From Escherichia coli (GTDB taxonomy: Bacteria; Pseudomonadota; Gammaproteobacteria; Enterobacterales; Enterobacteriaceae), in the NCBI RefSeq assembly GCF_003018235.1, contig NZ_CP027437.1: DNA of 64,000 nt. The stretch is one strand, 5' to 3'. How positions within the stretch are numbered: the first letter of the stretch is position 1; each line of letters opens with the position of its first letter. The notes under the pieces were generated by a model. That model saw only the letters and a program-made list of their open reading frames with translations. It was not told the DNA's origin and ran no database searches. Both the position numbers and the translations under genes were made by a program. Below, in pieces: positions 16,594-41,682 of the stretch.

Positions 16594-17590
16594 GCCCATC
16601 GTTTTTAGTGGCGCACAGCCCTCAGGTGAATTGACCATTGGTAACTACATGGGTGCGCTGCGTCAGTGGGTAAACATGCAGGATGACTATCATTGCATTT
16701 ACTGTATCGTTGACCAACACGCGATCACCGTGCGCCAGGATGCACAGAAGCTGCGTAAAGCGACGCTGGATACGCTGGCCTTGTATCTGGCTTGTGGTAT
16801 CGATCCTGAGAAAAGCACCATTTTTGTTCAGTCCCACGTGCCGGAACATGCACAGTTAGGCTGGGCACTGAACTGCTATACCTACTTCGGCGAACTGAGC
16901 CGCATGACGCAGTTTAAAGATAAATCTGCGCGTTATGCCGAGAACATCAACGCTGGTCTGTTTGACTATCCGGTGCTGATGGCTGCGGACATCCTGCTGT
17001 ATCAAACTAATCTGGTACCGGTGGGTGAAGACCAGAAACAGCACCTGGAACTGAGCCGCGATATCGCCCAGCGTTTCAACGCGCTGTATGGCGAGATCTT
17101 TAAAGTGCCGGAGCCGTTTATTCCGAAATCTGGCGCGCGCGTAATGTCGCTGCTGGAGCCGACCAAGAAGATGTCCAAGTCTGACGATAACCGCAATAAC
17201 GTTATCGGCCTGCTGGAAGATCCGAAATCGGTAGTGAAGAAAATCAAACGCGCGGTCACTGACTCCGACGAGCCGCCGGTAGTTCGCTACGATGTGCAGA
17301 ACAAAGCGGGCGTTTCCAACCTGCTGGATATCCTTTCTGCTGTAACGGGCCAGAGCATCCCGGAACTGGAAAAACAGTTCGAAGGCAAGATGTATGGTCA
17401 TCTGAAAGGCGAAGTGGCTGATGCCGTTTCCGGTATGCTGACTGAATTGCAGGAACGCTATCACCGTTTCCGCAATGACGAAGCCTTCCTGCAACAGGTG
17501 ATGAAAGATGGCGCGGAAAAAGCCAGCGCACACGCTTCCCGTACGCTAAAAGCGGTGTACGAAGCGATTGGTTTTGTGGCGAAGCCGTAA
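16586..17590 (+). CDS. trpS: Tryptophan--tRNA ligase
   Basis: 334-aa ORF with class I aaRS motifs ([13 protein letters not shown]-like, KMSKS at KMSKSDD). Confidence 0.96.
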
Positions 17591-17604
17591 TTTAACATTA
17601 ATGC

Positions 17605-17632
17605 CAAAAACCGGGGAAACCCGGTTTTTTTA
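17605..17632 (+). terminator. Rho-independent terminator of the aroK...trpS transcription unit
   Basis: aaaaaccgggg-aaa-ccccggttttttt immediately after the trpS stop. Confidence 0.8.
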
Positions 17633-17750
17633 TCCTCTTTTTGCAATAATCCGAAAAAATGTGAAGCGCCTCGCCGTTTCCACATCTCGCAGTTGCCACT
17701 TATCTTCATTTTTATGAAGATATAAATATTCACTTTATTGAAAATTTACT

Positions 17751-18656
17751 ATGCGTCGAACGTTTATCAAAAAAGAAGGCGTCGTCATCACGACACTGGC
17801 CCGTTATTTGTTGGGTGAAAAGTGCGGTAATCGACTGAAAACCATAGATGAGCTGGCAACTGAATGCCGTTCATCCGTTGGCCTGACGCAGGCCGCGTTG
17901 AAAACGCTGGAATCAAGCGGAGCGATACGGATTGAACGCCGTGGGCGCAATGGCAGTTATCTGGTCGAGATGGATAACAAAGCATTGCTGACTCATGTGG
18001 ATATCAACAACGTGGTATGTGCGATGCCCTTGCCCTATACCCGTTTGTACGAAGGCCTGGCGAGCGGATTGAAAGCCCAATTTGATGGCATTCCTTTTTA
18101 CTATGCGCACATGCGCGGCGCGGATATTCGCGTGGAGTGTCTGCTTAATGGCGTGTATGACATGGCGGTGGTTTCCCGACTGGCGGCGGAAAGTTATCTC
18201 ACGCAAAAAGGGTTATGCCTCGCGCTGGAGTTGGGGCCGCACACCTACGTTGGCGAGCACCAGTTGATTTGCCGTAAAGGCGAGTCCGCAAACGTGAAGC
18301 GCGTGGGGCTGGATAACCGTTCGGCGGATCAGAAAATCATGACCGATGTCTTTTTTGGCGATAGTGATGTGGAACGTGTCGATCTCTCTTATCACGAGAG
18401 TTTACAACGCATTGTTAAAGGCGATGTCGATGCGGTTATCTGGAACGTGGTGGCGGAAAACGAACTGACCATGCTGGGATTAGAAGCGACGCCGCTCACA
18501 GACGATCCGCGATTTTTACAGGCCACCGAAGCCGTGGTTTTGACGCGAGTCGATGATTACCCGATGCAACAATTGCTGCGTGCAGTTGTTGATAAACAGG
18601 CCCTGCTTGCCCATCAACAACGAGTGGTCAGTGGGGAACAGGAACCCAGTTATTAA
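17751..18656 (+). CDS. yhfZ: Putative DNA-binding transcriptional regulator YhfZ
   Basis: 301-aa ORF; first gene of the yhfZ–yhfS cluster, directly after trpS as in E. coli. Confidence 0.85.
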   Translation: MRRTFIKKEGVVITTLARYLLGEKCGNRLKTIDELATECRSSVGLTQAALKTLESSGAIRIERRGRNGSYLVEMDNKALLTHVDINNVVCAMPLPYTRLYEGLASGLKAQFDGIPFYYAHMRGADIRVECLLNGVYDMAVVSRLAAESYLTQKGLCLALELGPHTYVGEHQLICRKGESANVKRVGLDNRSADQKIMTDVFFGDSDVERVDLSYHESLQRIVKGDVDAVIWNVVAENELTMLGLEATPLTDDPRFLQATEAVVLTRVDDYPMQQLLRAVVDKQALLAHQQRVVSGEQEPSY

Positions 18657-18672
18657 ACCAAAGGCATCTGAA

Positions 18673-19035
18673 ATGGAAACCAGACTCAACCTGCTTTGCG
18701 ATGCAGGCGTTATTGATAAGGACATCTGCAAAGGCATGATGCAGGTCGTCAATGTCCTGGAAACAGAGTGCCATCTACCGGTGCGCAGTGAGCAAGGAAC
18801 GATGGCGATGACACATATGGCGAGTGCACTGATGCGCAGTCGCCGTGGTGAAGAAATAGAGCCGCTGGACGCCGAATTGCTGGCAGAACTGGCGCAATCC
18901 AGCCACTGGCAAGCCGTTGTGCAATTGCATCAGGTGTTGTTGAAGGAATTTACACTGGAAGTTAACCCGTGTGAAGAAGGCTATTTGCTGGCCAACCTTT
19001 ATGGATTATGGATGGCTGCTAACGAAGAGGTTTGA
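18673..19035 (+). CDS. yhfY: PRD-domain protein YhfY
   Basis: ORF frame 18553..19035; likely start METRLNLLCDAGVIDKDICKGM at ATG 18673 gives 120 aa. Confidence 0.8.
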   Translation: METRLNLLCDAGVIDKDICKGMMQVVNVLETECHLPVRSEQGTMAMTHMASALMRSRRGEEIEPLDAELLAELAQSSHWQAVVQLHQVLLKEFTLEVNPCEEGYLLANLYGLWMAANEEV

Positions 19036-19118
19036 AGCTCCCGACAAATCCACGTCGCACAACCTAAATATTCAAAAAAATGAATATTTAATTCAAGGAA
19101 CAGAAACGAGGCAACAAG

Positions 19119-20282
19119 ATGTTTGTAGAAGCATTGAAACGCCAGAACCCGGCGCTAATTTCCGCCGCACTAAGCTTGTGGCAAAAGGGCAAGATCGCCC
19201 CGGACAGCTGGGTGATCGACGTGGATCAGATACTGGAAAACGGTAAGCGGCTGATTGAGACGGCGCGGCTTTACGGCATTGAACTGTATCTGATGACTAA
19301 GCAGTTTGGTCGTAATCCGTGGCTGGCGGAAAAACTGCTGCCATTAGGCTACAGCGGCATTGTGGCGGTGGATTACAAAGAGGCGCGAGTCATGCGCCGC
19401 GCCGGTTTGCCGGTGGCGCATCAGGGGCATCTGGTACAAATCCCTTGTCATCAGGTGGCTGACGCCGTTGCACAGGGCACCGACGTCATCACCGTGTTTA
19501 CTCTCGACAAAGCGCGGGAAGTTTCTGCGGCAGCGGTGAAGGCCGGACGTGTGCAGTCTGTGCTGCTCAAAGTTTATAGCGACGATGATTTTCTTTATCC
19601 GGGGCAGGAGAGCGGTTTTGTACAGCATTCGCTGCACGAGGTGGTTGCTGAAATTAAGAAACTGCCGGGGTTGCATTTAGCTGGACTAACCCATTTCCCT
19701 TGCCTGCTTTGGGATGAGGCTGCCGGGAAAGTTTTGCCGACACCGAATCTTCACACGCTGGTACAGGCACGGGATCAACTGGCGAAATCTGGTATTGCGA
19801 TTGAGCAACTGAACGCGCCTTCAGCGACCAGCTGCACTTCGCTGCCATTACTGGCGGAATACGGTGTGACTCATGCCGAACCCGGTCATGCGCTGACGGG
19901 CACTATTCCGGCAAACCAGCAGGGCGATCAGCCTGAACGTATCGCGATGCTCTGGTTAAGTGAAATCTCCCATCATTTCCGTGGCGACAGCTACTGCTAC
20001 GGCGGCGGTTACTACCGTCGTGGTCATGCGCAACATGCGCTGGTGTTTACGCCAGAAAATCAAAAGATTACTGAAACCAATCTCAAAACTGTGGATGACA
20101 GCAGTATCGACTACACCCTGCCGCTGGCAGGCGAGTTTCCGGTAAGCAGTGCAGTAGTGCTCTGTTTTCGCACGCAGATTTTTGTCACCCGTAGCGATGT
20201 GGTGTTGGTGTCTGGTATTCATCGTGGCGAACCGGAAATCGTCGGTCGTTATGACAGCCTCGGCAACCCTCTGGAGGCGTAA
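19119..20282 (+). CDS. yhfX: Putative PLP-dependent alanine-racemase-fold protein YhfX
   Basis: 387-aa ORF; position and length match yhfX. Confidence 0.82.
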   Translation: MFVEALKRQNPALISAALSLWQKGKIAPDSWVIDVDQILENGKRLIETARLYGIELYLMTKQFGRNPWLAEKLLPLGYSGIVAVDYKEARVMRRAGLPVAHQGHLVQIPCHQVADAVAQGTDVITVFTLDKAREVSAAAVKAGRVQSVLLKVYSDDDFLYPGQESGFVQHSLHEVVAEIKKLPGLHLAGLTHFPCLLWDEAAGKVLPTPNLHTLVQARDQLAKSGIAIEQLNAPSATSCTSLPLLAEYGVTHAEPGHALTGTIPANQQGDQPERIAMLWLSEISHHFRGDSYCYGGGYYRRGHAQHALVFTPENQKITETNLKTVDDSSIDYTLPLAGEFPVSSAVVLCFRTQIFVTRSDVVLVSGIHRGEPEIVGRYDSLGNPLEA

Positions 20283-25161: not shown

Positions 25162-25203
25162 TCGTTGTAAACGATATTTTTGAAAAGAATGCAGAAACAA
25201 ATA

Positions 25204-25227
25204 CGCCCTCGGATTACTCCGAGGGCG
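25204..25227. terminator. Bidirectional terminator hairpin between convergent yhfS and yhfL
   Basis: cgccctcgg-attact-ccgagggcg stem-loop in the ~110-bp yhfS–yhfL spacer. Confidence 0.6.
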
Positions 25228-25271
25228 TCAGGCAATTAAACCGGCGTTAGCCGATTTCTGTCAGAGACTTA

Positions 25272-40666: not shown

Positions 40667-41682
40667 GATTTCGCCTCCAGATACGTTGTTAACCAGTCAG
40701 GAATGCGTGACTCCAGCCACATTTGTGGATGAAGTAATGTACCGCCAATAAAGCCAACATGACCGCCATGTTCAGTCAGCTGATACTCCACCTGCGGGGG
40801 GAGACTTTCCGGTTTCGGGATCACCTGATGATCCATAAACGGATCGTCTTTGGCGTGAATAATCAGCGTCGGTTTGGCTATCCGATTGAGCATCGGCATG
40901 GCGCTACACTGACGATAATAGTCGATAGCGTCAGCGTAGCCGTGAATTCTGGCGGTGATGAGATCGTCAAATTCACGGATGCGACGTACCGATTTTAACT
41001 GCGCGAGATTAATCGGCAGCGTTCCGGGGTAGGCAGCCAGCTTGCGTGCGGCATTGGCTTTTAACAGGTTCAGCAAGTAACGCTGATAGACGCGGGAAAA
41101 GCCCTTTTCCATATGATAGCTACAGGCTTCCAGCATAAACGGCGCAGAGACAATCACCGCCGCATCAATCGGGAGATCATTGCCTTCTTTTGCCAGCAAA
41201 CAGGCCAGCATATTACCGCCGAGCGAATAGCCGACGGCAGCCGTTGGCGCATGACCAGACTCGCGTTGCAGCCAGCGTAAAAACCAACTGGCGTCTTCGG
41301 TTTCGCCCGAATGGTAAATGCGGTGCATACGGTTTGGTTCACCGCTGCATCCGCGAAAATGCATCACCACGCCCAGCCAGCCGCGCTTTTGCGCCGCCTC
41401 AACCAGACCGTGGGCGTAAGGGCTATTGAGACTGCCTTCCAGCCCGTGAAATACCACTAAACGCGGTTTATGACGCGCCTGTGCAGGGTCTTCACTCCAC
41501 GCGAGATCGACAAAATCGCCGTCGGGCAACTCCAGTCGCTGCCAGTGCGGGGTGAATTTCACCTTGCGACGAAACAGACGCGGCAGCATGGTTTGTAGAT
41601 GACAATTGCTAAAGCCGCGCATAGGGGTGAATTCAGCACTGCTGCTGAATTCATTGGCATCGGTCGTCGTTATCTTCGCCAT
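40660..41682 (-). CDS. yheT: Alpha/beta-hydrolase-fold protein YheT
   Basis: 340-aa ORF with GYSLGG nucleophile-elbow motif. Confidence 0.88.

Follow-up and report, generated by a model that had tools for sequence, protein, structure and literature searches.

A conserved palindrome in the yhf operon of Escherichia coli, most likely an operator of the putative regulator YhfZ

In the pdhR-aceEF-lpd operon of E. coli, the GntR-family regulator PdhR is encoded by the first gene, and its autoregulation is relieved by a metabolite. The yhfZ locus resembles this system in several respects. The regulator gene stands first in the operon that it would control, both proteins join an N-terminal winged helix-turn-helix (HTH) to a C-terminal effector domain, and a palindrome lies over the presumed promoter and start as the PdhR operator does, autoregulation being carried over to YhfZ only by analogy. 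The two systems differ in the effector domain, which is the periplasmic-binding-protein (PBP)-like YhfZ_C in YhfZ and FCD in PdhR, and in the three candidate operators and the gene for a PRD-like partner that belong to the yhfZ system. The YhfZ motif also lacks the GGT...ACC core of PdhR, whose consensus is matched at 7-8 of 14 positions, no better than in shuffled sequences. Similar values were obtained with other GntR-type consensus sequences (FadR, 8/17; HutC-type, 3-4/6), 50-100% of shuffles matching or exceeding the score in each case. Since a GT...AC core is missing, the palindrome is not a canonical GntR operator.

A second parallel is found in the lac and gal operons. A class I CRP site, TGTGA-N6-TCACA, is centred near -61.5. 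At yhfZ, a CRP-like site lies about 60 bp upstream of the presumed transcription start, candidate operators cover the predicted core promoter and start, and a further one, 1.37 kb downstream, is a putative looping partner. This distance is larger than that between lac O1 and O2 (about 400 bp), and, unlike in lac and gal, the downstream copy may belong to a separate promoter of yhfX. To our knowledge, yhfZYXW-php-yhfUTS is among those E. coli genes that have no assigned function or regulation, and a full-text literature search with yhfZ, its neighbours and the Pfam names found neither the motif nor a function of YhfZ described. In a RegulonDB-derived table, yhfXW-php-yhfUTS is given as a separate operon (PMC4448311).

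The 64-kb stretch of DNA analysed here, referred to as the window, carries hofQ-aroKB-damX-dam-rpe-gph-trpS followed by yhfZYXW-php-yhfUTS on the plus strand, and is colinear with E. coli CFSAN061763 at 98.3% identity. The trpS gene ends at 17590. Behind it, at 17606-17631 on the plus strand, lies the trpS intrinsic terminator, AAAAACCGGG-gaaa-CCCGGTTTTTTT, a perfect 10-bp inverted repeat (-15.1 kcal/mol) followed by a U run. This terminator is invariant in E. coli strains and forms the upstream boundary of the yhfZ control region; our terminator scan missed it because the extension of the stem uses up the T run.

Inside the control region, a 9-bp inverted repeat with a 4-bp spacer had been predicted at 17701-17722, and it is indeed there. 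Its left arm, TATCTTCAT (17701-17709), and right arm, ATGAAGATA (17714-17722), are exact reverse complements on either side of a tttt spacer. The repeat cannot be lengthened outward, T at position 17700 standing opposite T at 17723. The yhfZ ATG is at 17751, in agreement with the RefSeq start, and 29 nt lie between the end of the repeat and this codon. The distance of some 30-50 bp given by the original prediction thus agrees with the 29-50 bp that we find, and the surroundings proved as AT-rich as claimed: 22-33% G+C (0.33 for 17631-17750 and 0.22 for 17691-17750) vs 52% for the whole window. When the 120 nt from the trpS terminator to the ATG were shuffled 5000 times with dinucleotide composition preserved, perfect inverted repeats of at least 9 bp with spacers of at most 10 nt appeared in 1.0% of the shuffles. 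The whole window contains 18 repeats of this kind vs 2.7 expected. Several of the 18 resemble terminators, e.g. those at 41628-41655, 25203-25230, 48293-48320 and 54771-54798.

Comparison of seven E. coli strains, including K-12, gave a different outline of the element. Two 8-bp arms, TATnTTCA (here TATCTTCA) and TGAAGATA, are invariant. The six bases between them differ from strain to strain (TTTTTA, TTTTAA, AATTCA or AATTCC), and the near flanks vary too. The window strain has TATCTTCA-TTTTTA-TGAAGATA at this place, K-12 and other strains TATCTTCA-AATTCC-TGAAGATA. Because the ninth pair is strain-specific, the element is to be described as two 8-bp arms flanking a variable, A/T-rich centre of 6 bp. 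The predicted 9-4-9 unit is therefore perfect in this strain, but the conserved unit is 8-6-8, the ninth base pair and the 4-nt spacer being peculiar to the window strain. We refer to this 22-bp palindrome, a candidate operator at 17701-17722 (-50 to -29 from the yhfZ ATG), as site 1.

Two further copies of the element are present in the operon. Site 2 (17725-17746), AATATTCA-CTTTAT-TGAAAATT, is an imperfect copy with zero mismatches to ATNTTCA-N6-TGAANAT; its extended form is TAAATATTCA-CTTTAT-TGAAAATTTA (17723-17748). It abuts site 1, with the two centres 24 bp apart, and 5 nt separate its end from the yhfZ ATG. Site 3 (19065-19090), which came from a window-wide listing of perfect inverted repeats, is a perfect 10-6-10 palindrome, TAAATATTCA-AAAAAA-TGAATATTTA, located in the 83-bp spacer between yhfY and yhfX, and the yhfX ATG (19119) follows 28 nt past its end. 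Sites 1 and 3 have in common the core TTCA-N6-TGAA and the flanking AT. Within the 64 kb, ATNTTCA-N6-TGAANAT occurs at sites 1, 2 and 3 only, even with one mismatch allowed, as compared with about 0.09 occurrences expected, a value that is only descriptive, since two of the three sites had served to define the pattern. It may be added that yhfZ has no recognisable Shine-Dalgarno sequence (17739-17750, TTGAAAATTTACTATG); site 2 fills its expected place.

To follow the element beyond E. coli, YhfZ homologues were collected, aligned and used to fetch 80 loci, one genome per species, amounting to 834 kb. They represent about 18 genera, including Escherichia, Citrobacter, Klebsiella, Pluralibacter, Trabulsiella, Buttiauxella, Cedecea, Chimaeribacter, Superficieibacter, Lelliottia, Atlantibacter, Serratia, Photorhabdus, Xenorhabdus, Providencia, Vibrio and Photobacterium, and many of the loci are closely related (27 are from Xenorhabdus). 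YhfZ identity across the loci ranges from 99% down to 45%, the Vibrio proteins lying at 45-48%. The pattern TTCA-N6-TGAA, derived from the window alone, was then applied to these 80 independent yhfZ loci. It has 174 matches in the 834 kb, 157 of them at just three positions, namely the two proximal to yhfZ and the one before yhfX. With this strict pattern, a match at -50, -49 or -48 of yhfZ is found in 58 loci. Conservation of the repeat in orthologous promoters had been named in the original prediction as a test that could refute it; in these 58 loci both arms are kept at the same distance, and the outcome supports the prediction. A match at -26, corresponding to site 2, or at about -30 in Vibrionaceae, is present in 49 loci, and 50 matches lie immediately before yhfX. 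Site 2 is absent from Xenorhabdus, Serratia and Providencia in this 80-locus survey. Most of the other 17 matches, at about +1206, fall into the 3´ end of yhfY without AT flanks and look like a coding coincidence.

A symmetrised weight matrix, built from the same sites that it scores, finds a match upstream of the first gene in 80 of 80 loci and a site before yhfX in all 75 loci outside Vibrionaceae. In Pluralibacter gergoviae, where the order is yhfY-yhfZ-yhfX, the upstream match precedes yhfY, which is the first gene there, and the other site again precedes yhfX. The genes of Vibrionaceae abut, and the upstream site only is present; Vibrio also has weight-matrix matches at about +1457, which fall within the coding sequence of the php-like gene, with the genes abutting, and were taken as a coding coincidence. 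The upstream neighbour is trpS in the Escherichia-Citrobacter-Buttiauxella group only, and the palindrome is kept despite other neighbours in Photorhabdus, Xenorhabdus, Serratia, Providencia and Vibrio. Among 18 genus representatives, the majority-base fraction reaches 0.96-0.98 in the arms vs 0.73 in the spacer, which is always A/T-rich, and 0.41 in unrelated upstream columns. The arms are unequally constrained, the right one more tightly, with position 19 mostly G and position 4 free. In Enterobacterales, site 3 is the sole conserved block of the yhfY-yhfX spacer besides the ribosome-binding site.

These results leave an almost negligible probability to the idea that the repeat is a functionless chance palindrome in an A/T-rich spacer. 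It is true that A/T-rich DNA yields short palindromes more often and that the ninth pair is confined to one strain. The idea is nevertheless contradicted by the conservation of the arms across genera, and neither the shuffles that keep composition (p about 0.01) nor the three copies in one operon agree with it.

A palindrome conserved in this way may work in DNA or in RNA. The sites might form hairpins in the transcript, within the 5´ leader and between yhfY and yhfX, and there take part in PRD-type antitermination via YhfY, or act as stability or translation elements. Sites 1 and 3 would indeed fold as RNA (-9.0 and -7.4 kcal/mol, z about -6 relative to shuffles), YhfY is PRD-like, and yhfZ has been listed in a survey among genes with putative attenuators upstream, although the attenuator was there ascribed to the BIME repeat (PMC2965389), which K-12 carries and the window lacks. 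Site 2, on the other hand, folds poorly (-2.6 kcal/mol, z -1.1), and the arm sequence itself, not merely the ability to pair, is common to the three sites and to 18 genera. Compensatory changes were not found: variation in the arms is one-sided and breaks pairs. The proportion of paired cells equals the shuffled expectation (92.3% vs 92.1% for 34 distinct sequences and 83.1% vs 83.6% for 32), and the one arm position that varies fails to pair in 16 of the 34 and 21 of the 32. The terminator scan detected no plus-strand terminator after any of sites 1-3, and a search of 17400-19300 against Rfam gave sub-threshold noise only. Site 1 itself was rejected as an intrinsic terminator, 2 of its 9 stem pairs being G-C and the stem being followed by AUAAAU rather than a U tract. 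Moreover, most of site 1 probably precedes the transcription start.

The PRD proteins deserve comparison at this point. As in the BglG/SacY and LevR/MtlR systems, a PRD-like protein is encoded next to a regulator, which suggests, by analogy, an input from the phosphotransferase system. YhfY differs from these proteins in being a stand-alone PRD of 120 aa, without a DNA-binding domain or the RNA-binding CAT domain that antitermination would call for, and the yhf palindromes differ from their RNA targets in showing no RNA covariation and no overlapping terminator. We consider an RNA function very improbable. Because it is the arm sequence, common to the three sites, and not its complementarity that is conserved, we regard the palindrome as a protein-binding DNA element rather than an RNA stem, and sequence comparison makes it highly probable that it is a conserved protein-binding site.

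Which protein binds it? The presumed binder is YhfZ (17751-18656, plus strand), the sole DNA-binding protein encoded in the operon. Pfam divides it into a winged HTH (HTH_41, PF14502, residues 24-71) and the PBP-like YhfZ_C domain, the GntR domain PF00392 not being the one assigned; the C-domain corresponds to PDB entry 2OZZ. The NCBIfam equivalog YhfZ_full, named 'GntR family transcriptional regulator YhfZ', is hit at 373 bits. The site had been claimed to fit a dimeric HTH protein, and the dimensions agree, with the centres of TTCA and TGAA 10 bp apart, about one helical turn, and arms of 7-8 bp. YhfZ is the most economical binder because the motif co-occurs with yhfZ across contexts. Conservation of the peptide QAALKTLE, in the putative recognition helix of YhfZ, lends no independent support since the loci were retrieved partly with that very peptide.

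The sites could also belong to a regulator encoded elsewhere, either global or specific for a nutrient, with YhfZ acting on other targets. YhfZ is, after all, a presumed binder, and further copies about 4.5 kb upstream of yhfZ in Photorhabdus and at -153 in Xenorhabdus indicate that the motif is not strictly tied to its two positions in the operon. This explanation seems improbable to us. The motif accompanies yhfZ through differing contexts and gene orders, and it occurs nowhere else in the window. Sites 1-3 were furthermore compared with the consensus sequences of Fur, ArgR, CRP, FNR, MetR, TyrR, NsrR, KdgR, Cra, FadR, PdhR and HutC-type regulators, and none of the 12 was convincingly matched; apart from nominal matches to ArgR and KdgR at site 3, the scores were no better than those of shuffles. 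The ArgR (13/16) and KdgR (13/20) matches rest on a flanking ATTCA that is not conserved outside Escherichia, and for ArgR the half-site spacing is wrong as well (N5, not N4). Binding of the palindromes by YhfZ is, as judged from sequence, the probable solution, and ATnTTCA-N6-TGAAnAT (20-22 bp) is most likely a previously undescribed operator of this protein.

The extra copies themselves can be described as follows. Most Xenorhabdus species have one additional motif copy, TATCTTCAAAATATTGATAATA, about 100 bp upstream of site 1 (the position -153 refers to L058). In Photorhabdus, a good copy, AATATTCAAAAAAATGATAATT, is found at the distal location (440-461 in L043, about 434 in L045 and position 1 in L049). 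This copy occupies an A/T-rich spacer, bounded on one side by the end of a membrane-protein gene and on the other by a LuxR-type gene of the opposite strand, and may mark an extra regulon member.

Next, we consider the promoter context of sites 1 and 2. Upstream of them, at 17657-17678 (centre 17667.5), there is a CRP-like site, AAATGTGA-AGCGCC-TCGCCGTT (= AAATGTGAAGCGCCTCGCCGTT), which shares 13 of 22 positions with the CRP consensus; 1% of shuffles do as well. In Enterobacterales, where the background is 0.42, conservation reaches 0.96 for its TGTGA and 0.94 for its TC, at a fixed 33.5 bp upstream of site 1, and TGTGA together with the TC of the right half is kept from Escherichia to Providencia. 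This suggests that the yhf operon may be under catabolite control. A -35-like hexamer, TTGCCA (17693-17698, plus strand), whose role as a -35 is presumed, lies 2 nt upstream of site 1. Its TTG is conserved at 0.98 in the Enterobacterales representatives (TTGACC in Serratia, TTGCGC in K-12), and when the upstream regions are aligned on site 1, the bases between the CRP-like element, there seen as TGTGA-N6-TCnC, and TTGnnn are not conserved. With the CRP-like element and TTGnnn at fixed distances upstream, the palindrome would come to lie over the promoter spacer and -10 region.

The -10 hexamer is less clear. A weak candidate, GAAGAT (17716-17721, plus strand), is located inside the right arm of site 1 at a 17-bp spacing from TTGCCA, with only 3 of 6 consensus positions matched. 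The alternative, TATAAA (17721-17726), matches at 5 of 6, with a 22-bp spacer. The distance from TTGnnn to a TATAAA-type hexamer is not conserved, being 19 bp in Photorhabdus. A consensus sigma-70 scan found no plus-strand promoter in either control region (before yhfZ or before yhfX), and before site 3 there is no conserved -35-like or sigma-54 element. If TTGCCA is the -35 and GAAGAT the -10, transcription would start near 17728, and the CRP-like centre, near -60.5 or -61.5, would have a class I position. In that case site 1 would extend from about -27 to -6 and site 2 from about -3 to +19. Whichever -10 is chosen, the sites would cover both the core promoter and the region of the start.

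On balance, we favour a mechanism in which YhfZ represses its own operon by promoter occlusion, CRP assists the promoter, and a ligand of YhfZ_C, YhfY or both lift the repression. Autoregulation is what the co-occurrence of motif and gene and the position of the sites point to. Site 1 would be the promoter-proximal operator O1, one of three in E. coli (O1, O2 and O3). A YhfZ dimer would insert its two winged-helix recognition helices into successive major grooves and read ATnTTCA and TGAAnAT across the A/T-rich 6-bp centre. O1 would cover the DNA from 2 nt past TTGCCA through the likely -10, and the adjoining O2 the start region to 5 nt before the ATG, so that YhfZ bound at O1 and O2 would exclude RNA polymerase and thereby repress the operon. 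The CRP-like site, some 60 bp upstream of the presumed start, would allow activation at high cAMP. Before yhfX, 1.37 kb downstream, O3 would serve the control of the structural genes yhfXW-php-yhfUTS: it might be the operator of a promoter inside the operon, block read-through as a roadblock, or form a loop with O1 and O2, and we make no choice among these. Release of repression would come from a ligand bound by the PBP-like YhfZ_C domain, or from the PRD-like YhfY. The 24-bp spacing of the centres of O1 and O2 speaks against this model in that it does not correspond to a whole number of helical turns. So do the tighter constraint on the right arm, the poor -10 match, the empty sigma-70 scan, the lack of a conserved -35-like element before O3 and the absence of the GT...AC core that GntR-family operators usually have.

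YhfZ might instead bind the palindromes as an activator, either remodelling the TTGCCA-22 bp-TATAAA promoter in the manner of MerR or acting as a LysR-like tetramer on O1 and O2. The weak core promoter, the empty plus-strand scan and a TATAAA that matches well yet stands 22 bp from the -35-like hexamer would all suit an activator. The structure of the protein is also relevant here. Its AlphaFold model (pLDDT 79) shows the helix-helix-helix-hairpin order of a winged helix followed by a type-2 PBP fold, and the best non-self fold matches are solute-binding proteins and full-length LysR-type regulators (OxyR, CbnR and BenM; E about 1e-11), whose combination of winged HTH and type-2 PBP fold and whose adjacent dyads in the control region, typical of that family, are met again at yhfZ. 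The LysR matches, however, have an rmsd of 12-16 A and rest mostly on the common PBP fold. YhfZ has no MerR or LysR HTH in Pfam or NCBIfam, no LysR substrate-binding Pfam hit and, in the model, no long linker helix. Its sites lie downstream of the -35, whereas those of LysR-type regulators are at -65 and -35, and yhfZ is co-transcribed with its targets, whereas LysR genes are divergent. Since the symmetry centre falls between two bases, partner positions are always even-spaced, a geometry incompatible with a T-N11-A LysR box. Photorhabdus does not keep the 22-bp distance, and the sites, reaching over the likely start to 5 nt before the ATG, have the classic position of a repressor. An activator role is thus unlikely, though we give it some weight, and repression remains the reading we adopt. 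As a side remark, YhfZ is labelled GntR by sequence libraries and is LysR-like by fold, and its family assignment may deserve a second look.

The gene following yhfZ is yhfY (18673-19035, plus strand), which adjoins it in all 80 loci. Its PRD-like product gives weak PRD hits below the curated cut-offs and is a possible signal-input partner of YhfZ. Besides this protein, the operon encodes an alanine-racemase-fold PLP enzyme, a phosphopentomutase-like metalloenzyme, the phosphotriesterase homologue Php, a DUF2620 protein, the membrane protein YhfT and an aminotransferase-fold protein. As a long shot, YhfZ and the stand-alone PRD YhfY could form a split DNA-binding switch controlled by the phosphotransferase system, a type undescribed in Proteobacteria. 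Phosphorylation of YhfY and the ligand of the PBP domain would jointly set operator occupancy, and the three operators would loop the 1.37 kb from the promoter to yhfX, so that the regulator and the catabolic genes on one transcript would be controlled differently.

The element itself would represent a conventional repressor-operator design. A motif with three mapped copies makes the putative regulator YhfZ directly testable, the 22-bp sites being named for mutation or footprinting, and CRP dependence of the yhfZ operon is predicted. The weight matrix can be used to search for further regulon members and might in this way lead to the substrate of Php and its partner enzymes.

In Vibrio (L084, L086 and L088), the single operator ends about 8-9 nt before the aligned yhfZ ATG, and a -35-like hexamer, TTGCTA, lies 3 nt upstream of it. 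Because this operator is so close to the ATG, the transcript may have almost no leader, or translation may in truth begin at another codon.

Finally, E. coli strains vary in this region. When the DNA following the trpS stop codon was compared among four loci (L008, L004, L003 and L006), K-12 and OW1E2 were found to carry a REP/BIME-type element of about 129 bp between the stop codon and the terminator, and RSHH22 and MS 85-1 a different, G-rich repeat of about 108 bp; the window strain has neither. E. coli O157:H7 RIMD 0509939 (L007) is missing the whole operon from yhfZ to yhfS, trpS being directly followed by frlR-frlD-frlC. In the window strain and one further locus (L001), yhfS leads directly to yhfL and cysG, and the frl operon is missing. 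The yhf and frl operons are two neighbouring catabolic islands that are variably present in E. coli.
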